A DNA stretch of 58,625 nt, the filler included, from Sphacelaria rigidula (lineage: Eukaryota), in NCBI GenBank assembly GCA_964200075.2. It is 10 parts of 10 records of this genome, joined end to end, with 100 filler letters (N's around TTAATTAATTAA, not from the genome) between each part and the next. Parts side by side here need not be neighbours in the genome. Positions count along the whole stretch, not along the records: positions 5,874 to 11,646 come from CAXNAA020024579.1; 9 more parts are not named here. The stretch is one strand, 5' to 3'. This document shows, piece after piece, positions 275-41,766 of the stretch. Both the position numbers and the translations under genes were made by a program. Under the pieces are notes generated by a model. It had not been told where the DNA came from. It did no database searches and was given only the letters and a program-made list of their open reading frames with translations. Within the stretch, counting starts at the first letter, position 1; each line of letters starts with the position of its first letter.

Positions 275-3104
275 CTGGTGCTTGGTCTCTTCTCTGAGTC
301 TTCTCTGCAGTAGCTGCAACTCAGACAATTTTTGCGCGTGTTCGGTTCTCCAGGCTTCTTCACGGGTGTTCAAGCTCCGTTCCCTCGCCTCCACCTCCGA
401 CAATGCCTTGCGTAGCTTCCCCTCCAACTGTAAAACAAAAAACGAAACAACACAACAATACGACGCGATTGCACCGAAAATCATGTTTGGACATTTACTT
501 CACTTTTTCAGCTCGCTCGCCGGCGCCTCAAAATTTAAAGCAGCAAAAACCAATTCAGCACGATTCTGCTGATCAGTATCTGTGATATCGTAAAACACGG
601 TGGATACCGCCCGGTAATAAGTTTGAAGGGGGTGGAGGGCGAAAAATCAATCACCCGCGGATCGTATTCGCGGAGGTGACACAGTATGTCATCGGCCTGC
701 TTCCAACCCTGCCAGTTTCTCGGAACAAGTCCGTCGTCTCAAGTAATGAACCCATCTCTCCCCCGCTATGTTCGAGTATTAATCCAAGATGAGATCAAGG
801 CCTCGTCGGGTTTGTTTGCTCCTGACATACTCACGACTTCAACGGCGGAAACCATGCTCTATCGGTGTTGCTCCACAACATCTGGACTGTATCTGTCGGT
901 ATTCGAACTCGCAACTTTTCCCGGCGTAACTGGCTATTGATTTACCATTTTGATCCAGAGCACCAGGACGCGATAGCAAACGTAACTCAACAACGAGCTG
1001 TAGACACTGTCAGAGTGCCAAAAACCCGGAAATTTATTATCCGGGAGTGCTGTTCACGGGGTGGTAAACAACGTACGGGTGATACCCAACGTGCACCCTA
1101 GCCTTAGCCCTCACCCTATGCTAAGGTACTAGCCGGATCGAACTAAAATTTGGTACCCTCAATATGACATGATGGCTGTTGTTATTGTCACTTCGGTGCT
1201 TTTTGATCTTGCCTTCGCATATTCCTGCTGAGCTTGGGCCACATCCTTCCTGCGAGCAGTCTCTCTTGCAGTCCATTTTTCCTCCAATGCTTGGTCCTGA
1301 GCAAACAAGGCAATTTCATGTCACAGGAGGAAACCGAAATTCGGTACATTAGCGCAGCCATTTGAATTGAAGATATAGGCTCAATGCAAACGTCTGCGCT
1401 TGTACTTTAGCAACAGCCTCAGCCGATGTTGTGGCTGAGAATCCCGCGTGAAGTTTTGTCGTATTTCGTAGGTTTACGTCGTCCGGCAACGTTAGGGCGC
1501 GCGTAACTTGATCCACTCATCAAATTTGACGACAGCCCATGAGCTGCGGGGGGGGCGTACTCATTTGTTGCTTGCCTTAGTCATTTGACCATTGACCACG
1601 CATCCCTTTCGAGACGGAGCACCGTGCTCATGGGGGGTGCTACCAGTCATCATTTACTGCTCCGTGCTGACGTGCAAGGTAAGGCAGGCACAGATCCAGG
1701 GGAGAAGAAGATGGGTCGATCCTGTCTCTTAGGAGCACGGTCTCATCCCCAAACGGGTGACAAGTCACACCGACAGTTTCATCAACAGATGGCACCAAAT
1801 TCAAAATTTACGTTGAAAGTACAGTTCGGAAAGGAAAAAACATATTTCAGAAACTCCCCCGAAATAACTATATATTCGCCCATGCACCGAACGGAACATG
1901 ATTTGCGAGCACTTGGCCACCAACTGCACTCGTGCTGACCTTCTCTCGAAGACGATTGGCGAACGCAGTCTCTTCTCTGACCCGCCAGTGCTCCCACTCG
2001 GCCCACACCCTCGACACATCGGCGCGCCCCTGCACCGCCTCATCCACAACTCCCTTCAACGAAGGCGGCATGGCATGTAACGCATGTACCCCCGAACCGT
2101 CAAAGGTGGCGCTAGGAAGGACCGTTGGGACACCCTGGCGATAAATCGGATATGGGGGAGTGACACACAAAATGAAGAAAAAAAAAAACATGGAACAACG
2201 GTGCATGTTCCAAGTAGATGTCGATTAGGGGTTCCGGAGAAGGTACCCCCAAAACGACCAACAAAGCGTTTCCCAGCGGTACTCTTTATTGACCGAGTTC
2301 AAACGAACAATGCACCATTTTTTTCATCAGTGCCCTATGCTGCCACCAACTATGGATCGCAACTCCGAAGACCGTGTGCCATGTACCGCGGCAGAGATTC
2401 ATATTCGCTGGGGATCTGAATTTTAGGCAAAAGCGACAAGTGATCTCCTCAGCTACAGCATACAGGTATCAGTTTATCAATGAACTTCATGGGAATCGGA
2501 TCTCGAAAGCACCATCAAAGGCTAACTTGCGTCTGATCGCTGATAATAGGACGTAAATAATGTCCATATGCCCATGATCTAATTATTCAAGCAGCACGGG
2601 TATCTTCCTGCAAGTGGAAGGACTGCCTTGCTGCCTTGTTGCTTGGCTCATAAAATCGGTACGGGAATGTTGGGCATATCTTAACTTCAAAGTTAAACAT
2701 GTTTCTGGACAGTAATCTAACCGCTGTCGGTAGTAGAGAGCTTCAGCCATGAGCAGTGAAAATTCCATTGTCTGCAATTGAGATTGGACTTGGGGCAAGG
2801 TTAGTACTACTAACACTGTTGGTTTTGATTGATTCTTTCGTCCAAAAGCAGTCCAGCTGAGCCAGTCCAAGCAGGTCAACGCAACCACCTCGCTCATTTT
2901 TGAGTCCTGTCAACGATTGCTCCTGCAGTAAACATCTAAGAGTCTTCGTGGCCACAGGGCTAACGTAATGGGGGCAATCACGGACTACGACTGCAGGGCC
3001 ATACTGCGGCTAGGTTCAGCCAGCACCTGTTGATGGAGGCCTTGTCCCTGTGTTGCTCCACGCGCGACCGTCGGCGGTGTTGGTGATTCGTCAACCGCCA
3101 CGTC
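275..3104 (-). CDS. CEP120: CEP120-like centriolar protein, partial multi-exon gene (coiled-coil region)
   Basis: Phase-0 exons 2134-1940 (GVPT...WAEWEHWRVREETAFANRLREK), 1296-1213 (DQALEEKWTARETARRKDVAQAQQEYAK) and 427-275 (LEGKLRKALSEVEARE...LQRRLREETKHQ), with AG acceptors and GT/GC donors. Joined peptide resembles the CEP120 C-terminal coiled coil as I recall it (ELEMWKE..E..F...L..K / QALAEEW..RD.ER....EY..LEGKLQK.L...E.RE). Exon 3104-3027 is tentative. Confidence 0.75.
690..960 (-). mobile_element. Degenerate tRNA-headed SINE (family S1)
   Basis: Minus-strand B-box-like GAGTTCGAATACC near 898-910. Body (AAGTCCGT..CCCATCTCTCCCC) matches copies at 27333-27660 and 31655-31790. Confidence 0.5.
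1548..1626 (-). mobile_element. 5'-truncated LINE 3' end, family A, oligo(C) tail
   Basis: G8 + CGTACTCATTTGTTGCTTGCCTTAGTC...GAGACGGAGCACCG is the reverse complement of 6080-6158. A second G-run lies on the other flank. Confidence 0.8.
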
Positions 3105-3243: not shown

Positions 3244-3556
3244 GGGTGGGGGTGTACTCATCATGTTGTCTGCCCTGGTCATGAGACCATCGACAAAGCA
3301 TCTCTACCAAGCCGGAACGGAGCACGCAGGATTTTTCGCCATAACAGCCTCGAAACCAATCACCAAGCGCGAAGCACCGTTATGTTCGTGGCGAGTTGCA
3401 TGACGGACGAGCTACATCCTGCTGAGATTGCTTGTCTCGAAGCGTACTGGATATCTTTCATGTAGATGACAGTCTCGAACTAGTTGCTTCATTTTCTGGT
3501 ATCGCCACTTTCAAAGACAACCACGGCATATACACTGCCTCATAGGTACGACCATC
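3244..3556 (-). mobile_element. Retroelement 3' end, family B (~300 bp), oligo(C) tail
   Basis: G-rich run + GTACTCATCATG...; colinear with 6624-6924 and the reverse complement of 31030-31225 (shared TTTTCTGGTATCGCCACTTTCAAAGAC..CCACGG). Confidence 0.75.
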
Positions 3557-4235
3557 CCCCTTACGCGGAGTTGAGGTTCTCCACCCCGCAACTTATGATC
3601 TAACTTGACCACCATCACGGTTACTGCAAAAAACGCAAGCGCGAAAAACCCCGGTGAAATGGTCGCCTAGCTTATGCAGTGAGTGGCGTGTTTTACAGAG
3701 TCATCGTCAACCAACGCCAACCCTGAAAGGGAGAGCGAAGGGGTGCTTTGCTCTATAAGATACGTTATATGAAGAAACAGAGTAGAGGCAATTTGCCCAG
3801 TATCTAATTTCGAACACAACGTTTTGGAGTAAAGGATGGTGGTGCATGATGGTGCACAGTGGTGCTGCTGTAAACGCGCCGAGATAAACAAAACTTTGAA
3901 TGTCAGGGAACATGACCCTACCAACACCTATTATAGTCGAGAAGACAAGGGTTGATGAAACGCATACTGAGTGTGAAACCGGTGTTGGGGACAAAAAAAC
4001 AGGACCGCACGGGCGTGTGCTAGAAAAATATGCTGCCCGGAATACGCAGGTTCCCCGTCATATGACACATCCTGTGCTGCATGCTGCATGGCACCAGTTT
4101 CGTGTCCATCGTACCCTAGCTTCTTAGGTTACACAGTGTAAAACCCCCGGGTAACGACTGTTGGAGCCCCGGCAACTAACAACTAAGTGTCCGTAGGCGA
4201 TAATTAGGTGGATGGGTGGTGTACAACGTACAACA

Positions 4236-5699: not shown

Positions 5700-5773
5700 T
5701 TCGTGTAATGTATGGAAGAAGCGTAATGAGCGCCGGAATGTTGGAGGTGAGTCTATTAGGAGTAGGAACGGTG
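5700..5773 (+). mobile_element. LINE family A 3' region cut by contig end
   Basis: TCGTGTAATGTATGGAAGAAGCGTAATGAGCGCCGGAATGTTGG...GGAGTAGGAACGGTG is near-identical to 6008-6083. Confidence 0.75.
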
Positions 5774-5873: not shown

Positions 5874-5959
5874 ATTAACCGGGCTACGGCTCGAACCGGG
5901 TGCGCGCCCAATGGTTAGAGCCCCGAGGCAAGCAACACATGAGAACGCGCCCCCCCCCC

Positions 5960-6158
5960 TGGCCACAGGCGGCTAAACAGGACGGGGATAAGATATGTAA
6001 AAGGTTCTCGTGTAATGTATGGAAGAAACGTAATGAGCGCCGGAATGTTGAAGGTAGCTCTATTGTTAGGAGTAGGAACGATGCTTCGTCTCGAAAGGGA
6101 TGTGTGGTCAATTGTCAAACGACTAAGGCAAGCAACAAATGAGTACGCCCCCCCCCCC
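5960..6158 (+). mobile_element. LINE family A 3' end encoding an ORF C-terminus, then GTACG + C-run
   Basis: Reads WPQAAKQDGDKICKRFSCNVWKKRNERRNVEG...SRKGCVVNCQTTKASNK-TGA (stop ends 6142), then GTACG and C11. It begins right after the C-run tail of a shorter copy (5925-5959). Confidence 0.8.
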
Positions 6159-6471
6159 TCCCAAAGTGGTTGGTTTTGGGCGGCAAAATCTACACGTAAA
6201 TTGAAATGAAAGAAGCCGAGCACGACGAGCAGCTGGGAATCCCCACGCTTGGGTTCGTATTCCCCAATGTTGTCCATAAGAGTCGCTTCATGCAACCTGA
6301 AAACAAACATCAGGCGCTGTACGATTACGTTCTTTGTAACAGTTCTGGGCTGGCTTTCTTTTTGGGGGGGGACGGGGACGGCGTACTCATTTGTTGCTTG
6401 CCTTAGTTGTTTGACCGTTGACTAACCACGCATCCCTTTCGAGCGGGGGGGGGTATCGTAGAAAGACTCGT
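6148..6471. mobile_element. MITE family M1 copy with LINE-A tails inserted in its terminal C/G runs
   Basis: Body matches the reverse complement of 8913-9165 and 41518-41766. Right TIR TATCGTAGAAAGACTCG at ~6453-6470. LINE-A fragment at 6381-6443 sits between G-runs. Confidence 0.7.
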
Positions 6472-6623
6472 GAATTATTGTTCCTCCCCCATACCGAGTG
6501 TTTGATTGGAAGCTTGTGCCCCAACAGTACAGTCTCCGGATAGCGAATTCGTAACCTATTTCCACAGTCTTGTCCCTGGTGTTACATATTACCCGAAGCC
6601 CCGGTGTGGGTCTCTCGGGGGGG

Positions 6624-6924
6624 AGCACGCATGGCCTCGCATGCCGTAGTCGGAAGACTGTTGACTCGTCCCGACAGCGCCGGGACGGAACACGCCGGGT
6701 TTCCGCCGGATCAGGCTCGCAATCAATCACCAAGTGCGAATCGCCGTTATGTGTTCGGCAAGTCGCACGAAAGGTGTGATGCATCCTGTGAATATTGCTC
6801 GGCCCGAAGCGTACTAAATAGCTTGTATATGGATGCAAGCCTCCAACGAGTTGCTTCATTTTCTGGTATCGCCACTTTCAAAGACAGCCACGGGTTCCAC
6901 CCTACTTCATGGGTGTCTCACCAT
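6624..6924 (-). mobile_element. Family B retroelement with 13-bp TSD
   Basis: Flanked by GTCTCTCGGGGGG (6610-6622) and GTCTGTCGGGGGG (6925-6937). Body colinear with 3244-3556. Confidence 0.8.
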
Positions 6925-7621
6925 GTCTGTCGGGGGGTTCTCGGGATCGGTACCAGTTCTCAGCCTATCGTCTCTTGCTCTTTCATTTCCATCAGATTTG
7001 AGGTGCTCATTTTACCCCCCTTCTTTTTGGTGACATCCCTCGTATTTGCGAGTTTCCTTCAGAGAGTGTTCCGGTTTCTTTGGCTGGTGCGTCCATAATA
7101 CGACCACAGCGATTGGTGGCACATCCGTTGACGTATACTGCTCAACTAATCTATCCGTTGGTGGTCGTAGCTATTCCAATCGCATTGACGCCAAATTTGC
7201 AACACGACCTGGACACGTATATACTTTTATGACGCGGGCAGCTCGTTCCGTAAAATAAATACATGGCATCGTCTCTGTCCTGTTGTCGGCACGCACACGC
7301 ACTTCGCCGTTACTCTGCTGCGATACGTGCCGAGGCAGTCGCTCAGGGTCACGCAAGACGGCATTCTTCTTGTCCTCCGATAGGACGGGTCTATCTGGGG
7401 CATGAGGCCCGTAACAAGCAATGGATGATATGGCTGATCATGTACAGCGACGCGAAAGTCCGAACCAGCGACGATAATCTTTTACATCAACTCACTGCGA
7501 GCCTAAACCTCACTTGTAGCCGATGAAAAAACACAAGATTTCAAGAGGCCGTCATTGTTGTCGCCGAGATGTTCTCTCCTTAGTGCGTACATCCCCCCCT
7601 TGTCCTGTACCGGGTGCACAG

Positions 7622-10484
7622 CAACATTCGCAAGGCTATCATACAACTCATGACAGCGTCCACCACCATGCGACAACAAGGACAACAGCCACCGATATCT
7701 GGATATGATAGCACAAGGTCGGATGTGCCGAAAAGGTTGGCAACAGCGATGTCGATTGAGGGTGTGGTGGAGCCAAATCAAGAAGCGAGGAAGGACACCG
7801 ATGCGTCCACGTGCATGTTTTGGTGTGCGGCTGCTACTGGAGCGCTTCTTCGGGGCCGACCTGCCGACTCCGTGGTACGTTATTTATACATCCGCCCCCG
7901 TAAGGTCAAACCGTCACATAAACACTGGTTCGGAAGGATGTAATCCGATCTACTCCCAAGAACGTTTTCGTGAGATTGAGAGTAGAGCACGGATTGAGAG
8001 TGGCTTGGATCATTTGCTTTGATGTAGCCAATTTTTCATTCCGTGTGTGCTTTTCTTCGTCTCTATCATTGCTGTGTGCTTACAGCTACACGTCAATATC
8101 CCACTCGGGGATATCAAGGACCTCAATGACAAGCTACTACAAAAAGAATCTCAGGCCTGACGGAAGTGCATTTCGTAACCGAAACGATTCATTCACTCAC
8201 TGACCGCTTTCACTCTCAATCATATCCCCTACTCTCAATTTCACGAAAACATTGTCTTCCACAGAAAAGTGGTTTGTTTCCGGATAGCCTCATCCGAAAC
8301 TCTACATGATCGGGAGCGGTATGCCCGGGATTCGGTATGCCCAGGATTGATTGAGTCTGTGCGTGTATGGAGTCATCAGGATGTTCTGGATCTAAATAGC
8401 TGACACGTCTCAAGTCGTGGAAATGTAACCTGTTTGGAGTATGACTATTCGTTCTATAGGCCTCACGCCGGGCGACCGATGGTGTCATGCGGATCGTACG
8501 CGGAAAAATACACTGGCGCTACGTTAACCTCCTATGATTATCGAATATACGCTTATCGAATGCGGAACAGGTTCGACGATATGTCCGGCTGGCGGAGGGG
8601 GCATGCGGGGGAAATGTTGCTGGCCGCGTATCGGTGGAGATTTCCAGGTAACGGAGTCCACGTCAACACCGTGAGACATGGCACCCATCCCAAATAGCCG
8701 CACATCAGCTATAAACTCTCATTCTAGAAGACGTTCACTTTTCGTCTCGCGCCCGTGACTGAAATAGCATGGCCGTTTCAAGCATTACTTTGGCTGCTTC
8801 ATCGGTACAACATCCCTCTCTTGTGTCTCTTCTCGCACTCCCGCGCGTATCCATCTCCGTGCCAGGGCATCGGCTATTTTGGCGTACCTTCACGACCTTC
8901 TTGGAGATCATGTGAGTCTTTCTACGATAGCCCCCCGCCAAAACCAGCCGAAACCTAGCACGAAGAAAGTGGTCATAAAGCGCCTGATGTTTAGTTTCAG
9001 CCCGGGTGGAGCGCCTCAAATGGGTGACATTGGCGAAAACGAACCCAAGTGTAAGAATTCCCAGCCGCTCGTTGTGCTCGGCTTTTTTTCATTTCGATTT
9101 ATGCGTAGAGTTTTCCTCCCCAAACGAGCCACTGATTTGAGCGGGGGCCATAGTAGAATCACTCACGTGAGATGTATCATCGTGGCTTTTTCCAGCGTAA
9201 AGATCGCAAATCAAGATGATACGTCGCGGTCAATCCTGTGACACCAACGATGGATCTGTGGACATCAGTTGGAGTTGACTCAAATGCATCGAATGTGCCA
9301 CTAGGGTTTTACCACGGTTGAACGTTTTATCTCGATCGCAAAAGTCACGCGCAGCATGGAGGTAGTATGTCATCCACGGAGTGAAATCATTTCATATCGT
9401 TTCAGGTCTTTGTTCCGTTGTCTTGTTTTTGTACGACCGCAATTTAAACGGGGCGTTTTACCATTGAAGCTCATTCCAACGTTTCTCCAGTGAGCAGTCG
9501 TTACTCGTCCTTTTTTTTCAACGATAGAAACGAGCTACCATCTCGTACTTGTCGTGTGCCGTTCCATCTGAAATGAAACTCGCGAACCCCTGCTGTCCGT
9601 GCTTCACACCTTGCTGAATACGGCAGAAAAGCTCCGCTAGGTACATAGGAATCTCGCACGCGTTTCTCTGTGGCTGCTTTCAAGAAACATCAAGCGACCC
9701 ACTACCGATGGTAAGCTCTCCTCGTGTAGGATACGGATAAGGGCAGTGTTCTGCTGGGTAGCGCACATCACTCCCAGCGAAACGGAGTGGGTGCGTGTCC
9801 AAAACTGCTCATGACTAGATTGAGTCGACATGTATGTTTGTTTGCGGGATGTTCATCACGCTTCCGAACGGCACTGCTAACTGCTGTGTGACGGTTTGAT
9901 TCGGTATGCGATGCTCCGAGGAGGTTCAAAGACGCAACCAGCAGGCCATCTGCTGCAGAGCTGAATCTCACGCACGCAATCAAGCCAACGAATGTGCTTC
10001 AGTCATCCCTGCTCATATTTTCATCGTTTGATGCTGTATACAAGCGTCTTACCTAACGTTGGCCCTTCGGATCCCTTGGACTTCTCAGGGCTTCGTGGAC
10101 ATGTTGGGAAGTCTAGGCGGGTCGAGCCTCCTGCACAGCCGTTACGCCGACGCTGCTGATTTGGAGGCATATGGTGTCGGGGAGGATTCTGCCCTGCATG
10201 TGAGTCCAAGCTCCATCCTCGAACACAAGTGTAAGTCGTTTGAACTCATTGCTTTATGGGAATCAAGCGGCACAAGCGGCCCTCCTCTACCCACCCGTTA
10301 GTTTACGTTGTTCATACAACGGGGAGCCACTGCTTTGACTCAATGGATGGAACATTGAGCGTGTTGGGCATGATATTATGTCGGGTAACGCTGCCATATT
10401 TTCACGTTCTTGCCTAGTCGTGTCTACTCTGAATCCGTCCACTCGCTGTAGAGAGATGAATTGGTTGCGGAGAGATGGTGTCTG
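7622..10484 (+). CDS. Multi-exon gene of an algal FWCA-motif family (possible Zn2Cys6-TF-associated domain), partial
   Basis: Phase-compatible exons 7622-7874 (..STCMFWCAAATGALLRGRPADSV), 8571-8647 (VRRYVRLAEG..EIS), 8866-8911 (ASAILAYLHDLLGDH), 9627-9710 (KSSARYIGISHAFL..DPLPM), 10089-10199 (GFVDML..) and tentative 10452-10484, all AG/GT bounded. The motif order recalls a brown-algal expanded family; the family name is from memory. Confidence 0.6.
7961..8254. mobile_element. MITE family M2 (~45-bp TIRs)
   Basis: GTTTTCGTGAGATTGAGAGTAG...GATTGAGAGTG pairs with CACTCTCAATC...CTACTCTCAATTTCACGAAAAC. Same end at ~23330-23385. Confidence 0.75.
8913..9165. mobile_element. MITE family M1 inserted at a splice donor
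   Basis: TIRs TGAGTCTTTCTACGATAGCCCCC / GGGGGCCATAGTAGAATCACTCA. Internal sequence shared with 6148-6471, 11812-12052 and 41518-41766. Confidence 0.8.
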
Positions 10485-11207: not shown

Positions 11208-11811
11208 TGGCAACGAAAGCTAGCTATGTTCGGGTTTGCCTGCCGTACTACCGACAGCGTTGCGTGAAAGCCACAAGACCTTTGCTGTCGGCGGTTGATG
11301 GCGTGGGTCTCAAATACAACGACAAGCGGTTGATTGTAGAGCTACTCTCGTCCCAGCTTGTAATGCATGATCCCCTCACTTCGGAATAATTCTGGAAAGC
11401 TACTCGTAGTGTACCGAGGTGTTCACCCGAGCAGCGTGTGCTCCAGATTGCAGCATGGATGGACTCCTATGCGCCACACTAGCAACATTGAGGTCACCAC
11501 CATACGTATCTTTTTTCACTCCGCATGTCAAAAAGGTCACTACAAGTGTTTGATCTCTCATACACCCCCCTCAACTGGCAATGCGCCCCCCCCCCCCCCC
11601 CCCCGACCCGCACCCCCCCCCGCCCTCCCCTTCTCCCCCCCCCCCCNNNNNNNNNNNNNNNNNNNNNNNNNNNNNNNNNNNNNNNNNNNNTTAATTAATT
11701 AANNNNNNNNNNNNNNNNNNNNNNNNNNNNNNNNNNNNNNNNNNNNCTCAGCCGCCGGGTTTCCGGGGTGCTTGCCCAGGCCCCCCCAAAGGACATTTTC
11801 CGGGCGCGCGA

Positions 11812-12052
11812 CGACCCCCCCCCCCCCCCCCCCCCCCCAAGAAAAGTGACTGGTTTAAGGAGGTGAAACCAATATGTAAATCTAAATGACAAAAGCCGGG
11901 CACAGCGAGATGCTGGGAACTCCCACGCATGTGATCGACATGATGAGGGGCTTCATGCAGTCTTGAACCAGCTATCATGCCCTTTACGACCATTTTCTTC
12001 GTGATTTTCCTGGGGCTGTTCTGGAGGGGGGTTGCTATTGCGGAATCAGTCT
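11812..12052. mobile_element. MITE family M1, degenerate copy with expanded C-run
   Basis: AAAGCCGGGCACAGCGAG..GCTGGGAA..CTTCATGCA.. is colinear with 6190-6350. Confidence 0.6.
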
Positions 12053-17010: not shown

Positions 17011-17619
17011 GTAAGCGCCAGGTTCAGAAACGACACCCATGCCTGTGACTTTCATTAGCACTTTCGGCACATAAGTCAAGTTCCACAGAAGTTGCCTGTG
17101 CATCGCGGTGTACCAAGGTCGACGTTGCTTGTAACCCTTGTGCCGCCGGACCCTTCAGGTGGATCATAGATGAACAGATTTGTTCACATATCAAGTGCCG
17201 TACTACGCGATGTGAAGGGTGTCACGGAGACAAGTTGGTGATACGGGAGTACACTGAAACCAAGATGATCAAATCTGAACATTTTAGTAGCGATTGTGAT
17301 GAGCTAGAAGGACAAACCAGCGGGAAAGGTCAATATGAGGTTCAACTAGTACATTCAAAATCACATCACCAGCGCGGGTGAAAAAAATATTCCTGGACCC
17401 ACACTCACTTTTTTCCATTTGGGGCCGATTGGGGGGGGGGGGGGGGAGGACTTGTTGGGCCGGGTTCCGGGTGGGGGGTTTCGGGTTTTTCTCAAATTCC
17501 TATTACTTAATGCCACCCANNNNNNNNNNNNNNNNNNNNNNNNNNNNNNNNNNNNNNNNNNNNTTAATTAATTAANNNNNNNNNNNNNNNNNNNNNNNNN
17601 NNNNNNNNNNNNNNNNNNN

Positions 17620-19645
17620 GTTTCGACGTCTCTACATTTGCCTCTGCCCACGCATTGATTTCTTTTGGAATTCCTTGTCGAACTCCGTTGTTGTTTCTGA
17701 TGTTCCTAGTTTACGGTAGTGCTCGACTAGCACTTCCCTCTTTCCCTTCGAACTACCAGCCATTTTACTGTTCTATGCCCGTAGTGTAGCTATGCCCTTG
17801 TCCATCTTTCCTGCCTGATTTTGTGTGATCCCTTTTATCCTTGGCCATGTTTGTTTTACCGAGCTGTCGAAATCTTCATTTCGTTTTTCCACTACACCTT
17901 CCCAAACATCCGTTTTTTTCTGCTGTACCATCGTTTGTACTTCCTTCCGAGCTTTGGCATACTCCTCTCATCCTACCGTAATTTTGTTCGACATCCATCT
18001 CGCGTGGGCCTCTCTCCTCACTCTGATGGCCTCTTTCACTTCCTTATCCCATCAGTTTACGGCTCTGTTGCATACGATCAGCTTCTTCTCTATGACTTTA
18101 CTCGCTGTGTTCTTGACCAGCTGCCCCCATCCTTCTACAATCTTCGCTCCTTCTCGATTTCTTTCCATTCCGGTATCAATTCCACCTACGCGTTCCAGCA
18201 GCTCGGAAAGTTTCACTGCATTGTGGGCCATCTGCTCTTGGAACTCTAGCCGTTTCTCTTCCACATCTAGTTTATCGATTCTCTACTTGTACAGCTTTCT
18301 ACCCCGCCTATTTATTTGAGCTCTCGTCTGTTGGTCTTCTGTTCATGTCAGGCAGTGATCTGTGGTCCCCACGTCCTCCGCGCAAATATACACTTCCATT
18401 TCTTCACTATTCCCGTGCTCTCTCGCTAGACAGTCAAGAACGGAGCATCCCATCTTTCCTTTGTACTACCTCGTCCATGTCCATTGCGCCTCTGGCTTTG
18501 GTACTCTATCGTTCAGGGTCTTCATCTCGTTATGCTCAAAGAACTTCAGCATTTCTACCCCTTTCGTGTTCTTATTTTTTACCCCATATTGCCCAATGAT
18601 ATCATGCGGTTGACCTGCTCTTCCTACCCTTGCATTCAAATCTCCCACTAACATTACTTCTCCTTGCCTTTTGTAAATACGTACATCTGCTACGATCTCT
18701 CCAAACCTACGCTGAATACCGTCCACCGTACTCTTCGATACTGGGAGCATATAGATGTTCCCGACGAAGTCCTTCGTTCCTCACTCTCCTGGTACCCTTA
18801 TCCATATACTCTCGTCGAATTTCGTGTCATCGAACACCACTATAATAACGTCACACAAGTATTCCTTGACTGAAAACGCTACTCCCCCCGCTCCCCTGCT
18901 CTTGTCCTTCTATCCCGTTCGTTTTTTCCCTATCCATGCGTACTTCTCAAGTATGCATCCTATTTCTACCCTCTCTTTCTCCCATGATCCTTGGATTCCT
19001 ACGATATCTAGGTCGTGTTCACTCACTCGTTTCGCTATCTGTCCTCGTTTGCGCTCGTCTGTGGCGAAGCCACACATGTTCCACGATCCTATTCTCAACT
19101 TTCTTTCCGAATCATTATCTGCTCTCTTGTTGTCTTCTATCCTCTTCCCGTGTCTCGTACTTCTATTTTCCCTTGCTTGATTGTTCTGCCCCTTGCCGGT
19201 TTGGACTTCGTCTACTTGGTTCGGTGCGCTGTGTCCCCTTTCCTTCCCCATCCGGCCGTTTACCTGTTCCCGCCTCTGTTTCCCTCCGTTTGCCCGTGCA
19301 CTACGCCTTAGGTTTGTTATTCTATTAGCAATGCATGCTCTCCATCCTACCCTTCCAACCCATGCCGATACCTTACTTGTTTCTATCCTTCTCCACTCCT
19401 TGCTCGCTCCCTGTTTTAGCGTGACTCGGGAGTGTTCTCCCTCCCGTTCTACGTTTCCTGTTGCCAAACAGTATAGCCCAACTTCATGGCATTTCTTTCT
19501 AAACTCCATTCTCGTCATGCCGCACGTACTCTGAATAGCAGCACTACTAGTGCCTTACCCCACCACTCTTTACTCCTCCATCCGCCCTTTCTTACCGTCT
19601 GTCTCTCCATCTCCTTGAAGAGAATCTCCAGCTTGTTCAATTTCA
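17620..19645 (-). mobile_element. Decayed non-LTR retrotransposon (LINE), 5' region with APE endonuclease
   Basis: LRIGSWNMCG..DIVGIQ.SW, VMLVGDLNARVG and EMLKF..NEMKTLN APE motifs, broken by frameshifts. Colinear with 32190-34200. Confidence 0.92.
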
Positions 19646-20548
19646 TTGTCTTGGTAGGATACCTTTAACGTACTGGGATATCCCGCTCCTAGTATTCGTT
19701 GGGGATTGGCTTCATTCAGTTTTTTTGCTGGCTCACCGACACTAAATAATGCCTCCAACACGGGTTCGTAGCCTGAAGCCGCGTTCAACACCTTTGACAC
19801 AAGTACCCCACGTTTGTGCCAGGCGATCTTCATGGTAAACCATACAGGCGTCCCACTATCGTATCTTCTATCTTCTTGCCCCGCTGCTGAACTGGTCACT
19901 TTCCTTCGAGAAAGTCAGTTTCGTCGTAAAAGGTTCAGAGACGGCTTGCATAACGCATGGTCTTACTCACACCGGGATGTCCCGTACATCACTCTTTCAC
20001 TCCGTGTACGATTCGCCATGGGTCCCTACTCCACTGATGCTTTCGAGTAGGCCTTCGCTGCCGAAGGCTTGGCCAACGATTCCCCCACACTTTGTGCCAG
20101 CTTTTATCCTTCAAAATGTCGAGAAGTCAACGCACCGCTTGGTGCTCCCTCTAGTAGGTTATGTGGTCGAGCATCGGTAAGGTGATTGTTCCATGAGTGC
20201 AGTAGGTCTTGGCATTTATGCCATGCATTGTCCACCCCTTTCCTTCATTAGGCGCTTTTTGCACCTAATGAAGGAAATGTCTGGAAATGGCCTACCAGAC
20301 TTCCACAGCCCGATGGAAAACGGTAAGGTGTTATGGGTATCTTACCACGAGCCCCCAACCTCCATGTGAATTTGACATGGAGGTGGTGATGACCCTACCC
20401 TATCCGTACTGGTTATATCTTATGTGCTTTTGATTTGCATGTAAGGTGGTCGAACTTCATGCTGTTGTTTACATGTCTAGGTTTTGGATTTATTATTGTC
20501 TTGCACTCGTCATAATATGATGGGGAAGAATTTCGGTGTTTTCCCGCG

Positions 20549-20905
20549 ATTCCATGTCTATGTCCGGGCTGTGTTATAGTAGTTTAAATAGAAAGAAGGG
20601 TTAGCTTCTTTATTTCATGTCTATCTCCGGGCTGTGTTATAGTAGGTCAAAAAAAAAGGAGAGCTAGCTTCTCTATTTCATGTTCATGTCCGGGCTGTGT
20701 TACAGTAGTTTAAATAGAAAGAAGGGTTAGCTGCTCTATTTCATGTCTATGTCTGGGCTGTGTTATAGTAGGTTGAATAAAAGGGGGTTAGCTTCTCTAA
20801 TTCATGTCTATGTCCGGGCCGTGTTATAGTATGTAAAATAAAAACGTGGGTTAGTTTCTCTATTTCATTTCCATGTCCGGGCTGTGTTATAGTAGGTTAA
20901 AATAA
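20549..20905. repeat. Minisatellite, ~6 x 62-63 bp
   Basis: Core TTCATGTCTATGTCCGGGCTGTGTTATAGTAG repeats with an A/G-rich variable part ending (T/C)TAGCTTCT. Confidence 0.92.
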
Positions 20906-21878: not shown

Positions 21879-21892
21879 AATTCACCATGTAA

Positions 21893-22310
21893 CGAACAAT
21901 TCTATAAAATGAGGTTCATCAATGAAATGAGGTTCGAGCCCAAGACAGGACTTTCTGCACACTTTCAGCGATGGTGACCAATTACTTTCTTGTCGGCCTT
22001 ATGCCCCTCGATCGCGTAGATACTTCTTCGGCGCATTTTATCGACCCTGTCAGCTTACAGCGCTGTCCGAAACCGTCATTTCTACTTATTTTAAAGGGGT
22101 GGGGGGTGATATCAGGAAAAACAGCGGTTTCTGTCAGCGCTGTAAGCTCACAGAATCGGCAAAATGCGCTGAAAAAGTATCTACGCGATCGAGGGGCATT
22201 AGGCCGACAAGAAAGTAATTGGGCACCATCGCTGAAAGTGCGGAGAAAGTCCTGTTTTGGGCTCGACCCTCGTTCATTTGATGAACCTCATTTTATAGAA
22301 TTGTCTGTTC
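21893..22310. mobile_element. Foldback element, ~185-bp inverted arms
   Basis: ACAATTCTATAAAATGAGGTTCATCAA..ATGCCCCTCGATCGCGTAGATACTT pairs with AAGTATCTACGCGATCGAGGGGCAT..TTGATGAACCTCATTTTATAGAATTGT. Confidence 0.9.
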
Positions 22311-23090: not shown

Positions 23091-23169
23091 GGGGGGGGTG
23101 TACTCATGATCATGCTTGCCATAGTCATCAGACCATTGACCTCGCATCCAGAAAAAAGGGGGGGGGGGG
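23091..23169 (-). mobile_element. Very short family B 3' end between two G-runs
   Basis: AAAGGGGGGGG-TGTACTCATGATC..GACCATTGACCTCGCATCC-AGAAAAAAGGGGGGGGG. AAAGGGGGGG occurs on both sides, like a TSD. Confidence 0.75.
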
Positions 23170-24489
23170 CTGAATTGCCTGCCTCGCTCTTCCTATCGCT
23201 CGACGTCCAGAAAACCGCTAGGGAAATCACCCCTGCTAATCACCCGCTATTCTCAAAATATACTTTTCTCGAATAACTCTTATCCCTGGAACGTACTTCA
23301 CATCGTGCCTACCGGTGCACCCACCTATAACAGTGTTTTCGTGAGATTGAGAGTAGATGATACGATTGAGAGTGAAATGCGGTCAATCAGTTNNNNNNNN
23401 NNNNNNNNNNNNNNNNNNNNNNNNNNNNNNNNNNNNTTAATTAATTAANNNNNNNNNNNNNNNNNNNNNNNNNNNNNNNNNNNNNNNNNNNNGGTTGGTG
23501 TGGGCGGGTCTGGGTGGGGGTGGGGTGGTGGGTGGGGGGTGGGGGGGTTGTGGTGTGGGGGTGGGGGGGGGGGGGGGGGTTACTCATGATCATGCGTACT
23601 AGGAAATGGGTCAAAACTTCTGGGAGCGCACAACATTCACACCACCCCCGCAAATGCATCCCACCAAGAATTTTGGGACCTCCGTGCCGTTGTTTAAATC
23701 TACCAAGCCTCCCGTCAAAACGCGTACGCTTCGAAACGGCCGTGGTATACTGAAACCCATATATTTTTATAACGAGCGGACAAACGAACATTGCAAGATA
23801 TCACGTGCATAATGGTCGACTTCGTTTGTACAATGAACTGAGGAATGTAGTCCTTTTGGTCCCTACCCAGATTCGCCTGTTGCCAGGTATATTAGTTGGT
23901 TCGTAGCCGAGCTAACGTGCTCTGGCCATCATATTGCACTGCCATAAACGCGAGAGGGCGCATATCCTGCTCGGGCACATTCGCTGGACCCCACCATCAC
24001 CAAGTCATGTCGACCCCAAGCATGTTACCAAATAATGTCGAAATGGAGACGTAGTACAGCTACAGCAACGACGACCTCGCAAGGTCAATTTTGCGGCATC
24101 ACAAAAGTGGGATATTGCACTACGAGTCTCAAGGCCCACCTTCGGATCAACGTCTTTAGAACGGGATAATATTTACCGGGACAGAATGATAACTCGCTCA
24201 CAAACATGCAGCGATCGAAGAAACGGAAACACGAAGCGGAGGACATGCATCAACAGGCACCGATATCCAATCAACACCACCAACAGCAACTGCCTCGTGA
24301 GCATGCGAGACCGTTACGTACGACTACATACTACACCGGACACGACCCATGGTATCATATATGGATATCACTAATCGAACCGAAAAAAACAATCACCAAC
24401 ACCACGCCACCTTGAGAACCAGTCAGAATCAGGCCTACGCACGGGTACACCACTCAACAACAAACAAGACATCTACGCTTTGCACACGA

Positions 24490-27207
24490 TCACGCACTCT
24501 CCTCTGTCTTCATGGCACGCGCGATGCCCCATAGGGCAGCAACTGCGCCTACAAACAATACACCGTACACTGTTCCCCCCATCGCCTCGCTAGTACCGTT
24601 CACGGAAGCTGCTTCTTCCCCTACCCCTTGTCCTCCTGCGTTTTTTCCCGATGAGGAGTCTACTCCGCTTGCACCTGCCGATCGCTTTCCATCTCCTTTT
24701 GATGTACCACCGCTCCCACTCTGATGCAGGGCACGATTGAAGTAAAAGAAGGAAGTAAATAACTGCACCAATACTACATGTTAGAGTCATGGGCGATACG
24801 AGTCATGGGCGATACGTAATATCCAATAAGCATTAAAGTTGGGCTCGGGATGAAGTACAGATGATGTTGATATATTATTTCAATCCACGCGAATTCGGGT
24901 GCAGGACAGATATGCCATACCGTGCGGGATGAGGAGTCAATTCTGTTGCGCATAATTACAACCACACACGCCAACAACCAACCATTCGCTCATGCGCGAG
25001 AGCCCTCAAAGCCTAAAATACTGCTCAAGACACACACAGAAACACAACCCGTGCAGACTAGAAAATTATTTTCCACGCACATGTACGAGCCAACTATTTT
25101 TTCGGGTGACGTTTTTCTTTAAACATCCGGAAACGCACCAAGACCCCTCATAAAAAAAGTACACAGGCCGGAACAGCTATTATATGAAAGAAAGGCTGTT
25201 GCACCATAGAGAAAACTGCACCAATCCAACGAGTCCCAGTCTGACCAGTATGGCCGAGACTCCTTAAAGTCACGAGCAACTGTTTTTTCACCAGTAATTC
25301 GTAGGCCCAAGTCTCGATTCCTACGATTTACCATGAACATTGAGTGGCCAGGTACAACATGAGCCAGACTCGTTCTCATTTTTGCCGAATGACTCGTGGG
25401 ACTCGAGTCAGACTTGATTGCAAAAACTCGTAGGACTTCGAGTCAGACTCGTCTTCATGTTTTTCTACCCGCAACCCACATTTGTCTTTTTTTTCTTTCT
25501 GAAGAGCTCGTACGGATTCAATCATACCACTCTGGACCAACAAAAGCAGCCGATACGGATCAAATTGCTGCATAACTTTTGCCCACCTTCAATTCTTTGA
25601 ACACTGTTTGGAGAGCCCGGCATCAGCACGGCTGTGCTTTCTTCATTTTCATGACCCCGTTTTTTGTACACTATATTATTTCTTGCTTCTCTTTCAATTT
25701 TTACTTCTGTTTATGGGAAGAAAAAAAAAAACGTTCGGTAAACAAAATGCATGGTAATTTCTCAAGAAGGGGTTTCGACGGGTGGCTGAAACACGCGTAA
25801 AACAAACGAAAAAAAGGGTTTCAGCCACCCGTGAGATGAAGCGAAACTTCGTATATATTTGCGGTCAGGATGGAGGAGGTTAAATGTCCCTAAAATCGAC
25901 CCGGTTTGCCCTGGAAAAACCCCGGCTATCCCCGAAGTATTTCATCAATGCCCTTCACTTGTTTTCCCCCGAGTGTCTCCGGTGTTGACTACCACCTCAT
26001 CTTGCAATAGCATGTACGCAATGTCTCACTCTGTTATATTCGTGAAATCGGCCTGTGACTCCGGGCCACCCGTTCTCGCCACTCATTTCGGTCCAGAGTG
26101 GTACAGGAAACGCGGTAAGAGGGGTAATGCGAAAGATACCAAGCCAAGCTCATCTTGGTACGTACGGTACAGCATACGGAACGAGCGTCAAGTGACCTCA
26201 CGAGTCCATAGTGCTCAGTCTCCAGAGTCAGGCCCGATGGTATACAGCACAATCTGTGCGATTCTGCACAGTACGCACACTTTGGCCGAACAACGCCAAA
26301 GCTTGCAGGGGTGTGTTGGGGCAGGGTAAATATCCAGGTACCTACCCTCCCGAATCTTCGATTGCGATGGTCCGATCTCCGAACTCTAAACAAATATTGG
26401 GTGAAGTGAGGTACGAAAGCAATACACTTCCCAATTTTCGGGTATTGATGAGCACGACCTCAACACTTCAGACACGACCTAAGTTTTGGGGTACTTCAGA
26501 CGACGATTTCGTCAACGTACTCAAATGTAGGACATATCCTACCCTACACAACAAACCCTTGAAAAACTTGCAGTACAGTGGATACTCCAGATCACTGTCC
26601 TAGTGATGAAACCGCGGACTTGGGTCGAGCTGCACCTAGCGGTTGGTTAGCAATGAGACGAATGGTTTTGGCTAGATACAGTTATTATCCACGTGAAATG
26701 TCACCATCGGAAGCATTAAGAGGGTCGGACAAATAATCATTCGTCTGGAAAATACTTGGTTTTAGTATGATTGATTCAACTCATACGAATCAATTCATAG
26801 GCTCTGATTTCAGCGTTGCAACCCAGGTACACGCAGCCCACACGCGGGGAATGGCGCAAAAGTTGCGTGGATACCCCTTGGACCAGCGGTCAGCTTTTTT
26901 TTTTTTTTTTTTGCTATTAGGCCGAAGAAATCGTGGATTTGGTGATTCGTAGTCGTGATGATTCGTCCTAACCGTGAAGCTTGCATTACCGTCGATACGC
27001 GACGTGATTTCGGCCTGCCGGTATGCCATTTTTTTGTGGATCCGCTACAGGTACTGCACACACAACAACTGGAGCAGGGCTCACCGATCCTGCTGCCGCG
27101 GCTTCCTTCTTTCGTCGCTCGTGCAGCTCCACAAGCTCTGGGAAAAGTTTGCGAAACGCAACATTTTTGCAGTTGAACTCCAGAGACTCCGCCGCATGCT
27201 TGCGTTT
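24490..27207 (-). CDS. UBE2J2: Ubiquitin-conjugating enzyme E2 J2 / Ubc6-like, last exons with C-terminal TM anchor
   Basis: Exon 27207-27085 KRKHAAESLEFNCKNVAFRKLFPELVELH resembles the Ubc6 post-UBC motif (KR.LA..SL.FN.K...F..LFPE). Phase-0 last exon 24720-24490 ends in hydrophobic VYGVLFVGAVAALWGIA + short tail. Confidence 0.75.
26780..26975 (+). repeat. Dispersed repeat, second copy at ~35880-36075
   Basis: CATACGAATCAAT..TTTCAGC.TTGCAAC.CAG.TAC.CGCAGCCCA..GGAATGGCGCAAAA.TTGCGTGGA is present in two unlinked contigs. Confidence 0.8.
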
Positions 27208-28647: not shown

Positions 28648-28720
28648 AGGGGGGGGGGGTGTACTCATTCGACTTGCCTTGGTCGTTTGACGATTGACTA
28701 CGGTCCGTTCGAAACGGAAC
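28648..28720 (-). mobile_element. Degenerate LINE family A 3' end in G-runs
   Basis: G12-TGTACTCATTCGACTTGCCTTGGTCGTTTGACGATTGAC. G-runs also follow downstream. Confidence 0.7.
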
Positions 28721-29090
28721 AGAGTTTTTTGGGGGTTTTGGGGGTTTTGGGGGGGGGGGGGCAAGGGGAGGGTGCAAACTTGCATTCTTGTCCAAGAACG
28801 GTCAAGAACGGTCAAATCTTGAAAAAACTGCCCCTTTTTTCTGGACTTGACCGTCGTTGGACAGAAATGAAATATTGATGAAAATAATAAAATTGCGGCT
28901 ACCGGAAAACGCAAAGGTGTCCTGGAACCGTCACAACGAGCGGAGAAAGTCTTTCCAACGCGCCAAAACCCTCTCAGCCCTCTTCAGATGGGAAAATGAC
29001 GCCCAAGGACCGAAATGGCAGACATACAGGATCTTCCTTGTTCAGTATTGTTTGGTATAAAAAGCAGCCTCAAGAAAAGAAGCACGGCGC

Positions 29091-29260
29091 GGGGGGGGGA
29101 GGGGGGGGGGGCGTATGATCATGTATGCCATAGCCATCAGACAATTGACTTCGCATCCCTACAACGCCGGGACGAAGCACGCCGGGTTTTCGCCGGACCA
29201 GCGGGGGGGGGGGGGGGGGACCCGTTTGTTGCTTGCCTTGTCCTTTTGACCGTTGGACCG
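29091..29260 (-). mobile_element. Stacked family B and family A 3' ends separated by G-runs
   Basis: G-run, family B end (29113-29200), G17, then family A end (GTTTGTTGCTTGCCTT..TTGACCGTTG). Confidence 0.75.
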
Positions 29261-29869
29261 GAGAANNNNNNNNNNNNNNNNNNNNNNNNNNNNNNNNNNN
29301 NNNNNNNNNTTAATTAATTAANNNNNNNNNNNNNNNNNNNNNNNNNNNNNNNNNNNNNNNNNNNNCTGATGCGCCCACATATCCCGAAAGGGGTAGACTG
29401 GCGTCCAGAATAAATGGGACGACAACACACACACACATGGCATTGTCACTGGAACCGTTATGCCCGACGACCGACTACCCCACACTTATGCAACAGAGGA
29501 AGAACATGCATTATACATTACAATATTATACACCCATGAGGCCCGTTGTCTCGGGGAACAAGTCACGCCTCTCGTACCGCGGGGTCACTCATGGATGAAA
29601 ATGTTATATTTAGTGCACAAGCAATAGCTTCCGCAATACCCGGCGAAGGCAAATGCTATGTATTAGATGTCTTTTTTCCTTCTTTTTTTTTTCAAAATAC
29701 AGTATGGCCAGACGGGTCTATAGTAGATACTACAACAGTGTGTTGAATCGTGTCATTTGAGTGTAAAGTCAGGCACTTGTTCTTCAGCACTCAGCGCAGA
29801 CCTGCGTTAGATACATGAAGTAACCGATGTTTTCACTCGAGTACGGCCATACCGCTTTGCAATAATTGT

Positions 29870-30499: not shown

Positions 30500-30593
30500 G
30501 TACTGTACTGTACCGTACCGTACCGTACCGTACCGTACCGTACCGTACCGTACCGTACCGTACCGTACCGTACCGTACCGTACCGTACCGTAC
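30500..30593 (+). repeat. (GTACC)n pentanucleotide microsatellite starting at the intron donor
   Basis: GTACTGTACT then ~16 GTACC units. Confidence 0.97.
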
Positions 30594-31029
30594 AATCAAC
30601 AGTTCAGCAGGAGCGTCTTTTGGCGAGATACGCGAATGCGATTGGTATCATTTCGGTTACTGTAGGGGATAGCAGGAGACATGGAAATTTCCGGACGGCT
30701 ATGATGTAGTGATGAAAAGTACTTTTCTGTTCTGAAGAAGTAGCTTACTCTTGTAGCGATGAGAATTCATGAAATTCTGTACATCCAAAATATTGCAAAA
30801 AAAAAGAAGGGAAGAAATCAAGCTACAAGGGGCGCTTTTTTTTCTCCAATTTCGGGAGGTTCACGAGCCCCTTTGGCTGGCTAGACCGCCAATTCACAGA
30901 TCTTGAGTTGAGGATCAAATATTTACGTGGTTTTTGGTGGTATCGCCATCTGGCCTGATGTTGTTGCCGCTGTTGCTGCTCTTGATGCTACTGACAACGT
31001 GAACGCTGAATTTTTGGTCGATTCCCCCT

Positions 31030-31225
31030 ACCGTGGCCGTCTCTGGAAGTGGCGACACCAGAAAATAAGCCAACTCACTCACGTAGGCTGTCATCCATAT
31101 GCAAGATGACCAATACGCTTCCGGCCGAACAATGTTAGCAGGATGCAGGTCACCCTCCATGGGACTCGCCGAGTACATCACGGCGCTTCGTGCTTGGTCA
31201 TTGATTACGAGCCTGGTCCACCAAA
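31030..31225 (+). mobile_element. Family B retroelement fragment
   Basis: CCGTGGCCGTCTCTGGAAGTGGCGACACCAGAAAAT..GTGCTTGGTCATTGATTACGAGCCTG matches the reverse complement of 6710-6895. It starts after a C-run. Confidence 0.7.
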
Positions 31226-31790: not shown

Positions 31791-32217
31791 CTGTAAGGAG
31801 CAAACGTGGAAAAGGGGGGCCAAATGATCTATATACCATATATCATGATCCCGATCAGTATCCTGAAAATAAGTAATTTTCAGACGGATCATGATCTGTC
31901 CGACGTGTGCTACCTTTCAGAGGCTGGCCGCTAAATATCGGGAGTTTTGTTTTGTCATTCTGAGTATCACCGTCCAAACCCATGAAGGGCCCTACCCACA
32001 ATCACGCGGCGGTTTCACAGCTTCGAAGGGGACGGGCAATTTGTATCACGGGCGGAGCAAGAAAAAACAGTTGATTGAAAACAGAATGCACATTTCACTC
32101 GCTGACTTGTCTCCGACTGGCGAGGGGTGTCGAGTCAACTAATGGGAAAGAGATTGAAGCGGCTGCTGCCTTTTGTTCACCCCCCAAAAGTAATGGACAA
32201 AACGAACAATCTGGAGA

Positions 32218-32219
<2 letters not shown>

Positions 32220-32257
<38 letters not shown>

Positions 32258-32275
32258 AGAGAGAGAGAGAGAGAC
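32220..32275. repeat. (CT)n-(GA)n self-complementary microsatellite inside the LINE 5' region
   Basis: TCTCTC...TCGAGAGAG...; visible directly. Confidence 0.95.
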
Positions 32276-34630: not shown

Positions 34631-34887
34631 GAGCAATGCTACGGAAGGGGTGCACTTTTTTCGCGGAATGTAGTCTGGTTCAGGGGTTCCTTACGATTCT
34701 AGAAGCACAAGAATATAAGTCAGGGCATCCCCGCTTGCAGATTCATTCGGGATATTTCCAGCACATTGGAATAGTAATCCTGGCGTACTTTCGCATATTT
34801 TCATAAGTCGTGTTTTGGGTGAGATAAAGGGCTCCTCACAATTCTAACCTCGGAAAATATGTGTGCACCCCTACCGTAGCATCACTC
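34631..34887. mobile_element. 257-bp MITE (family M3) inserted in the LINE RT, TSD TAGG
   Basis: TIRs GAGCAATGCTACGGAAGGGGTGCAC / GTGCACCCCTACCGTAGCATCACTC. TAGG at 34627-34630 and 34888-34891. Removal restores ...KIIQDRKDTG. Same end at ~47291-47315 and ~54375-54398. Confidence 0.88.
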
Positions 34888-41517: not shown

Positions 41518-41766
41518 CACTTTCTACGATAGTCCCTCCCCGAAGCCCGCCCCAAACTGTCCCGAAGTAAACGAGAATAGAGTGCCTAATTTTTAGTTTC
41601 AGGCTGCAAGACGCGCCTCATATAGGCGTCATTGGCGGAAACGGACCCAAGCGTTACAATTCCCAGCTGGTCGTTGTGCTCAGCTTTTTTCATCTCGATT
41701 TAGGTGTGAATTTTGCCTCCCCAACTCATTCACGTTTTTCGGGCGGAGGCTATCGTAGAAAGTGTC
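41518..41766. mobile_element. MITE family M1
   Basis: TIRs ACACTTTCTACGATAG / CTATCGTAGAAAGTGT. Body colinear with 8913-9165. Confidence 0.85.

Follow-up and report, generated by a model that had tools for sequence, protein, structure and literature searches.

C-tailed ends of a LINE and of a probable non-autonomous partner at C/G runs in a brown-alga-like genome

Introduction

The closest described systems are found in Ectocarpus, where RTE-X is the most abundant group of long interspersed nuclear elements (LINEs), with 16,418 copies (PMC12477816, Genome Biol 2025). In supplementary file 1 of that study, RTEX-1a_Ec32 is entered as 'single EN-RT ORF; (C)n 3'', that is, with one open reading frame (ORF) for endonuclease (EN) and reverse transcriptase (RT), and with a 'C-rich' target-site duplication (TSD), while RTEX-2_Ec32 is entered as '(C)n termini/TSD'. 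The same source (PMC12477816) lists two non-autonomous elements, RTEX-N1_Ec32 (607 bp; '60 bp 3' end 83% RTEX-1/RTEX-2', 'can be present in tandem') and RTEX-N2_Ec32 (188 bp), gives RTEX-4_NV and RTEX-1_BF as the best blastp matches of the (C)n-tailed LINEs, and ascribes (CAA)n tails to RTE-1/2. Here we describe a C-tailed LINE and a probable non-coding partner in a window of 58,625 bases (the whole stretch of DNA that was analysed, ten unlinked pieces, each 5772-5773 nt long, with N spacers between them). Judging from the RTEX-1/2 entries, the window holds the same system in another brown-alga-like genome.

In target-primed reverse transcription (TPRT) of the L1 type, the RNA ends in poly(A), the nicked strand is T-rich and the TSDs begin with A. 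The microsatellite-targeting elements of the R1 clade and the eel UnaL2/UnaSINE1 pair are further systems for comparison. An earlier note on this DNA had proposed a G/C mirror image of the L1 arrangement, had thought it possibly undescribed, and had pointed to RTEX library entries as a place to look. That lead was sound, and it overturns the suggestion of novelty, since Ectocarpus RTEX-1/2 are already on record with (C)n 3' ends (PMC12477816). In the main-text passages of that paper neither a C tail nor a target or mechanism is discussed, the trait standing in annotation notes only; the RTEX passages of PMC5753468 and PMC11203168 say nothing of tails, and a literature search for poly-C tails of retrotransposons found nothing relevant. 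Because the trait is already present in a curated library, the remaining value of the present observations is mechanistic rather than one of discovery.

Results

Thirteen retroelement 3' ends belonging to two families, A and B, are spread over six pieces of the window (at 1548, 3244, 5925, 6147, 6381, 6624, 23091, 23580, 28648, 29113, 29221, 47704 and 52684). A profile of the last 75 nt (nhmmer) detects 12 of these tails, and the thirteenth, at 23580, is about 16-20 nt long and was recognised by eye. The earlier note had counted about 15 such ends on six contigs; all 15 of its positions do carry family A or B sequence and the six pieces stand, but only 13 are 3' ends, as the sequence at 5701-5773 is cut by a piece end and that at ~31030-31225 is 3'-truncated, leaving no visible 3' end in either. 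What it called contig breaks are breaks between the sampled pieces. In element orientation the ends read ..ATGAGTAC(G/A) and then pass into C-runs. At least seven uninterrupted C residues (C7 to C17) follow 10 of the 12 ends that are not cut by a piece break, and the other two uncut ends have decayed or short C-rich tails (C5AC3 at 3244, CC at 47704). An A-run or poly(A) tail, as expected of an L1-type LINE, follows none of the 12 uncut ends in the window, which agrees with what had been noted before. In the copy at 5960-6158, also as reported, the stop codon TGA (6140-6142) is followed by GTACG and then directly by the C11 tail (6148-6158).

The C tail recurs well beyond the window. Four public runs (Logan contigs) from two studies, none of them recorded as RNA, contain the piece. 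As the source of the window may itself be among them, their independence holds for the locus but need not extend to the organism. Between 40,172 and 86,545 contigs per run match positions 5874-7000 at 80% likeness, which marks a very abundant repeat. Behind positions 6156-6162, all 15 rows among the loose ends listed run on as at least 11 C before they diverge (277-954 contigs each). The terminal 22-mer was found at three loci in marine metagenomes, too few for duplication statistics, and at each of the three the sequence continues from ..GAGTACG into C8, C11 or a C-rich run. Among 76 proteins that match the family A reading frame, 21 lack the stop and read on, and two consecutive prolines (PP) appear within 12 residues in 17 of those 21, against a background of 3.2% of 16-residue windows. 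The (C)n 3' terminus that marks RTE-X in Ectocarpus is seen, then, in the window, the four runs, the metagenome loci and the read-through proteins. That the homopolymers are sequencing or assembly artefacts, an outcome the earlier note had named as one that would undo its proposal, is scarcely credible: no supporting point was found, unique sequence flanks the runs on both sides, and the runs recur in four runs from two studies, in three metagenome assemblies and in proteins predicted from many assemblies. C tails also stand in the manually curated Ectocarpus library (PMC12477816).

The matching proteins place family A at the end of a LINE. The 60-codon frame of the copy at 5960-6139 matches the 76 proteins mentioned above, one of which is named Sphacelaria rigidula (brown alga), and the named relatives are only about 70% identical. 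Protein P0015 (655 aa) joins an RT domain (RVT_1, 2e-32) to the ..GAPSRKGCVVNGQMTKASNK C-terminus, and P0077 (1360 aa) carries the endonuclease domains PF03372 and PF14529 and the RT domain PF00078 together with the same ..GAPSRKGCVVNGQMTKASNK end. P0078 and P0079, the latter from Ectocarpus sp. and 70% identical, likewise link endonuclease domains of the apurinic/apyrimidinic (AP) type and an RT to that C-terminus. Through P0015 and P0077 the ..GCVVNGQMTKASNK end is connected to LINE bodies in the window at 17662-19518 and 32277-35135, so that the connection proposed earlier between family A and an endonuclease-RT LINE at 17620/32190 holds. When searched against the window by tblastn, P0077 aligns at 19518-17662 (aa 27-643, 62% identity) and 32277-35135 (aa 1-890, 53-58%), and also with the family A tails at 1564-1626, 5704-5772, 5960-6139 and 52683-52745. 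By this homology family A consists of 5'-truncated 3' ends of a single-ORF endonuclease-RT LINE.

P0077 and the window bodies alike show the layout of one ORF in which an AP-type endonuclease at the N-terminus precedes an RT. The best solved relative of the RT is human L1 ORF2p (8uw3, E 7e-21), as for an ordinary RT of the non-long-terminal-repeat class. The window bodies themselves are too decayed for Pfam to give more than a weak RVT_1 match (34310-34699) on the 161 window ORFs, the other matches being weak ones to bZIP, FPN1 and BBS2. In both LINE copies the sequence starts about 90 nt ahead of the ORF, and in the copy at 32190-35137 a C6 run adjoins the point where their homology begins; were that start the true 5' end, the element would be about 4.2 kb long. 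Together with the features described below, this architecture points to a probable brown-algal LINE of the RTE-X type.

Families A and B have only their last ~70 nt in common. Within family B, no LINE ORF was found by blastx against the 196 retrieved proteins, so that where the earlier note had implied a second LINE, family B is by sequence comparison a non-coding, non-autonomous partner of the family A LINE, presumably mobilised by it in trans. Sharing just this ~70-nt module, it resembles RTE-X partners, which have only 60-100 bp of 3' sequence in common with their LINEs. The head of family B, whose full-length 5' end is uncertain, matches no Rfam family at gathering score, nor was a tRNA detected anywhere in the window. 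A canonical short interspersed nuclear element (SINE) with an RNA polymerase III head (tRNA, 5S or 7SL) was considered for family B and does not fit, no tRNA or Rfam match having been found.

The shared module sits within the last 23 codons of LINE ORF2 and ends in ..TGAGTAC(G/A), after which the genome continues as a C-run; the element has, as a consequence of this position, practically no 3' untranslated region (UTR). Single-sequence folds close the module by pairing GUGCUC with the terminal GAGUAC. At the extreme C-terminus, the motif G-C-V-V-N/D-G-x-x-A-M/R-A is kept in LINE ORF2 proteins whose RTs share only about 40% identity (P0080-P0090, P0101, P0109 and P0197-P0284), a conservation that could come either from protein function or from an overlapping 3' RNA module. 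Read-through of the distant LINEs (~40% identity) with the ..GCVVNG..AMA.. C-terminus leads into YYYY, LLL or II, with PP in none of eight, which suggests tails of a tri-nucleotide type in those elements and not of C. In the absence of PP there, the single-base C unit seems to be a variant, specific to its lineage, of the simple-repeat tails that RTE-type elements usually have.

The base of the ~70-nt module (ACGGTGC..; 6078-6147, 1556-1626 and 52684-52753) is a starting point shared by many family A copies. Such a start is seen at two of the five family A 5' ends mapped in the window, and in the public runs contig joints that return to 6081-6083 far outnumber returns to other positions. These starts may represent a distinct mini-element made of the module only, or a preferred point at which the RT stops or switches.

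As the earlier note had held, the insertions lie at C/G runs. A C-run of at least 6 nt ends 0-25 nt upstream of 9 of the 10 mapped 5' junctions, directly abutting four of them, an arrangement found at 1.39% of window positions by chance (binomial P ~2e-16). The duplications are C-rich, as in RTE-X, at 6610-6623/6925-6937, at 23091/23158 and, as a duplication of the run only, at 6364-6453; they start with C and not with the A expected of an L1-type LINE. Around the family B copy at 6624-6924 the TSD reads CCCCCC(C)GA(C/G)AGAC, its 5' copy (6925-6937) and 3' copy (6610-6623) being 13 and 14 nt long and differing by one mismatch and one extra C, in keeping with the 13-bp, C-led TSD described previously. 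The copy at 23091 is flanked on both sides by the run plus AAA, again as described. In the protein set PP stands right before the start of homology in 8 of 20 N-terminal extensions, a count that is suggestive for the 5' starts and is blurred by gene-model artefacts. Beside the divergent family A copy at 28649-28761, a short telomere-like or slippage-like sequence, (AAAACCCCC)2 A6 (28762-28785, minus strand), separates the 5' end of the copy from a C13 run.

An unrelated repeat, designated R, supplies the best single piece of evidence for a target run that existed before insertion. Repeat R resembles a miniature inverted-repeat transposable element, with termini TTTCTACGATAG followed by a C-rich run, so that each of its terminal inverted repeats (TIRs) carries a C/G-rich run, and it is abundant in the public runs (depth at 6216-6329). 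Two paralogues that are empty at this site (~8918-9100 and 41520-41760) read ..CTTTCTACGATAG, then C6-7, then CAAAACC.., and in the third copy (6163-6470, minus strand) a 64-nt family A copy (6381-6444) sits inside the C-run which the other two hold intact. The empty-form joint 6353>6445 is present in all four public runs, in 1-3 contigs each. The copies at 5925 and 5960 sit in the G-rich run of the other TIR, and there they have the opposite genomic orientation. In every case seen, the run reads C along the sense strand of the element; one kind of target and one orientation, as in target-specific LINEs, thus describe the insertions with mapped 5' junctions, that at 5701 excepted. Untemplated addition of C, by terminal transferase activity of the RT or by tailing of the RNA 3' end and with no target preference, would suit the variable and sometimes interrupted tails (C11 T C9; CCGTCCCCGT), but it is contradicted by the C-runs at 9 of 10 5' junctions and by the run that pre-exists at the empty paralogous site, and we consider it very improbable.

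Copies also insert into the tails of other copies. Both nestings in the window are head-to-tail: the copy at 5960 begins right behind the C10 tail of the copy before it and has the same orientation, and the family B copy ending at 29202 adjoins, also in the same orientation, the C17 tail (29203-29219) of the family A end at 29220-29265. Many joints in the public runs that go back along the sequence are head-to-tail as well, for example 6158>6082 in 6-25 contigs per run, as are joints from family A tails to family B. The abundance of such joints and the recurring starts at 6081-6083 could also reflect recombination or template switching between C-runs in place of independent targeted insertions. 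Isolated copies with unique duplications that reach past the run (6610-6937 and 23091-23169) and insertions into the C-runs of the unrelated repeat R make this improbable.

Homopolymers of at least 11 nt are far more often C/G than A/T in the window (17 vs 3), although its composition is even at about 25% of each base. Long C/G runs (C11-C24) and C-rich degenerate arrays beside which no end of family A or B is recognisable occur at 37-63, 11586-11646, 11815-11838, 17431-17446, 54648-54658, 55106-55116, 57216-57227 and 58555-58570. Such orphan runs may be tails left by older copies, by extremely truncated ones or by other families.

Table 1. Retroelement copies and the host repeat in the window. 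Positions count along the whole window; C-runs are given in element orientation.
Feature	Position	Strand	Extent, flanks and evidence
Family A 70-nt copy with C8 tail	1548-1626	-	Tail 1548-1555; C6 run 6 nt upstream of 5' end; nhmmer, tblastn
Family B copy, decayed tail C5AC3	3244-3600	-	5' limit approximate; nhmmer
Family A fragment (P0077 aa 1319-1341)	5701-5773	+	Cut by piece end; tblastn
Decayed family A (LINE ORF2) 3' end	5883-5949	+	C10 tail 5950-5959; 5' part cut by piece start; nhmmer 5883-5945
Family A copy, last 60 codons of LINE ORF2 (P0077 aa 1302-1360)	5960-6158	+	tblastn 5960-6139, 72% identity
Repeat R body, TIR-bearing, host of insertions	6163-6357	-	Paralogues ~8918-9100 (+), 41520-41760 (+)
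Family A copy truncated to 64 nt (6381-6444) in left-TIR C-run of repeat R	6364-6453	-	3' side CCGTCCCCGT + C8 (6364-6380); 5' side C9 (6445-6453); paralogue comparison
Family B (non-autonomous) copy 6624-6924 with TSD	6610-6937	-	Sequence, family comparison
Decayed LINE body, endonuclease and linker (P0077 aa 27-643)	17662-19600	-	Cut by piece start; tblastn 62% identity, translation
Family B copy truncated to ~55 nt	23091-23169	-	3' C8 + TTT; 5' C12 + TTT..; nhmmer
Extremely truncated family B end (~16-20 nt)	23563-23600	-	C17 tail running into C-rich degenerate array; sequence
Divergent family A copy (28660-28725), C11 tail	28649-28761	-	5' of copy: C13, then (A4C5)2 A6; nhmmer
Family B copy (29112-29202, tail C11 T C9) directly after C17 tail of family A end	29091-29265	-	nhmmer
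Internal family B fragment, 3' module absent	31030-31225	+	Family comparison
Decayed LINE body, 5' end, endonuclease and RT start (P0077 aa 1-890)	32190-35137	+	Cut by piece end; tblastn, weak RVT_1
Family B copy (~47704-47800)	47704-47826	-	3' CC GTA; 5' C16 GTA.. (47811-47826); nhmmer
Family A 70-nt copy directly behind C6	52684-52753	+	Tail cut by piece end; nhmmer, tblastn

Other repeats were noted in the window. They include a (GTACC)n pentanucleotide microsatellite of about 19 units (30500-30594), an 84-nt tandem repeat in four copies (40266-40685) inside a 308-codon open frame (39881-40807), a 63-nt tandem repeat in five copies (20535-20901), and an inverted repeat whose near-perfect 199-nt arms (86%) flank a 21-nt spacer (21891-22309). 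Another repeat family is represented by two copies of 78% identity (26731-26912 and 35830-36008), one of which ends in a T18 run, perhaps the poly(A) tail of a minus-strand retroposon.

Discussion

The best explanation of these junctions is a C-tailed LINE of the RTE-X type which, together with its non-coding partner, inserts at C/G runs by reverse transcription primed from the G-run, and we give this explanation as a whole a probability of about 0.7. It takes in the identity and architecture of the LINE, its C tail, the C-runs at the 5' junctions and at the empty paralogue, and the fixed orientation, all of which were observed. Priming by the G-run is the well-supported candidate mechanism, and it would fit every junction. 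Transcription would run through the downstream C-run, so that the RNA 3' of the module would consist of templated C and not of poly(A); polyadenylation cannot make C, and the C residues of the RNA would have to be templated by the run downstream of the donor. The endonuclease would nick a genomic C/G run on the strand that carries the G residues, and the freed ...GGG-3'OH would pair with the C residues of the RNA and prime reverse transcription beside the module. That the G-run strand would be the primer is indicated by the sense strand, which continues into the C-run, and by the duplication, which starts with C. A second nick at the far end of the run, or a few bases past it, would then yield a duplication that begins with C or consists of it. 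Since the primer could anneal anywhere in the run, a small and variable contribution of C from the RNA would be compatible with this scheme. Each insertion would make two runs of one, so that copies would pile head-to-tail into tails and the family would seed its own targets.

Several points weigh against this explanation. Membership in RTE-X follows the published classification of close relatives rather than a tree, and the RNA 3' end, the specificity of the nick and the base-paired priming are what we infer from the DNA junctions. The consensus fold of 12 tails is weak (-5.9 kcal/mol), with almost no covariation. Among the 10 mapped 5' junctions, that at 5701 is the sole one with no C-run; the empty site with its C6-7 run is paralogous, not allelic; and, of the 37 C/G runs in the window that reach at least 7 nt, about half lie apart from any recognisable end of family A or B. 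Finally, some copies have a longer run on the 3' than on the 5' side (7 vs 6, 11 vs 10, 8 vs 6) and others a shorter one (8 vs 12, 2 vs 16, 11 vs 13); as the 3' run is not reliably longer, the element's own contribution of C would often be small or nil, and tail and target are not cleanly separable.

These lengths also bear on target specificity alone, in which the RNA would end, or be read, at ..GAGTAC(G/A), all flanking C would belong to the target, and no C:G pairing would take place, as in microsatellite-specific LINEs. Under this account, which we find unlikely though worth serious attention, a 3' run no longer than the 5' run is expected, as in the first two of the shorter cases just listed, and so is the run already present in the empty paralogue of repeat R; the entry '(C)n termini/TSD' in the Ectocarpus table (PMC12477816) can be read in the same way. 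It is at odds with the 6381 copy, in which about 10 extra C-rich bases (within 6364-6380) lie between the 3' end and the C8 duplication, and with the many genomic copies whose run exceeds the reference's 11 C by at least 11. In addition, the downstream C residues are necessarily present in the read-through transcript of any copy.

The system compares with L1 TPRT in having a homopolymer at the 3' junction that is continuous with the start of the duplication, in its frequent 5' truncation and in a non-autonomous partner that would be mobilised in trans. Unlike in L1, the homopolymer is C and not A, so that it would be templated and not come from polyadenylation; the partner shares a specific 3' module, as would suit recognition of the stringent type, and not just the tail; and ORF1 is absent. 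As in RTE-type LINEs with tails of short tandem repeats, a templated simple-repeat tail could pair with a like target, and as in the LINE/SINE pairs of repeat-tailed LINEs, a 3' module is common to the LINE and its partner. The difference from those elements lies in the repeat unit, here a single C, by virtue of which the targets would be mononucleotide runs that each insertion multiplies.

Closest of all are the Ectocarpus elements RTEX-1/2 and RTEX-N1/N2, which according to their table entries resemble the present system in their one EN-RT ORF, their (C)n 3' end and C-rich TSDs, in having non-autonomous partners with the last 60-100 bp in common, and in their tandem copies; the highest copy number among the transposable elements of the genome is listed as a further likeness (PMC12477816). 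The differences, by table description, are one of length, as RTEX-1/2 measure 5.5-5.9 kb (PMC12477816) and the window element about 4.2 kb if its 5' start is true, and one of origin, the present system coming from another genome with named relatives about 70% identical.

A broader proposition can be framed, on which we are evenly divided. The RTE-X elements of brown algae could be a true G/C mirror of L1, in which nicking of G-runs, a G primer on C templated by read-through and a recognition module inside the ORF are combined, a second copy of the target arises with each insertion, and the excess of long C/G homopolymers in the genome (as in the 17 vs 3 counted in this window) comes mainly from the LINE and its partners, which also form head-to-tail arrays. 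If this is true, brown-algal RTE-X would need neither polyadenylation nor a 3' UTR, the long C/G homopolymers that it leaves would be G-quadruplex-prone tracts, and the head-to-tail arrays would include very abundant copies of the ~70-nt module only.

In summary, a C-tailed LINE and its partner offer a natural test of how far TPRT is a matter of simple primer-template pairing, with the geometry of L1 and C:G in place of A:T. The system gives a rule for annotating very abundant C-tailed elements and for interpreting assembly breaks at their tails, and it would explain the origin of the many long C/G runs in brown-algal genomes.

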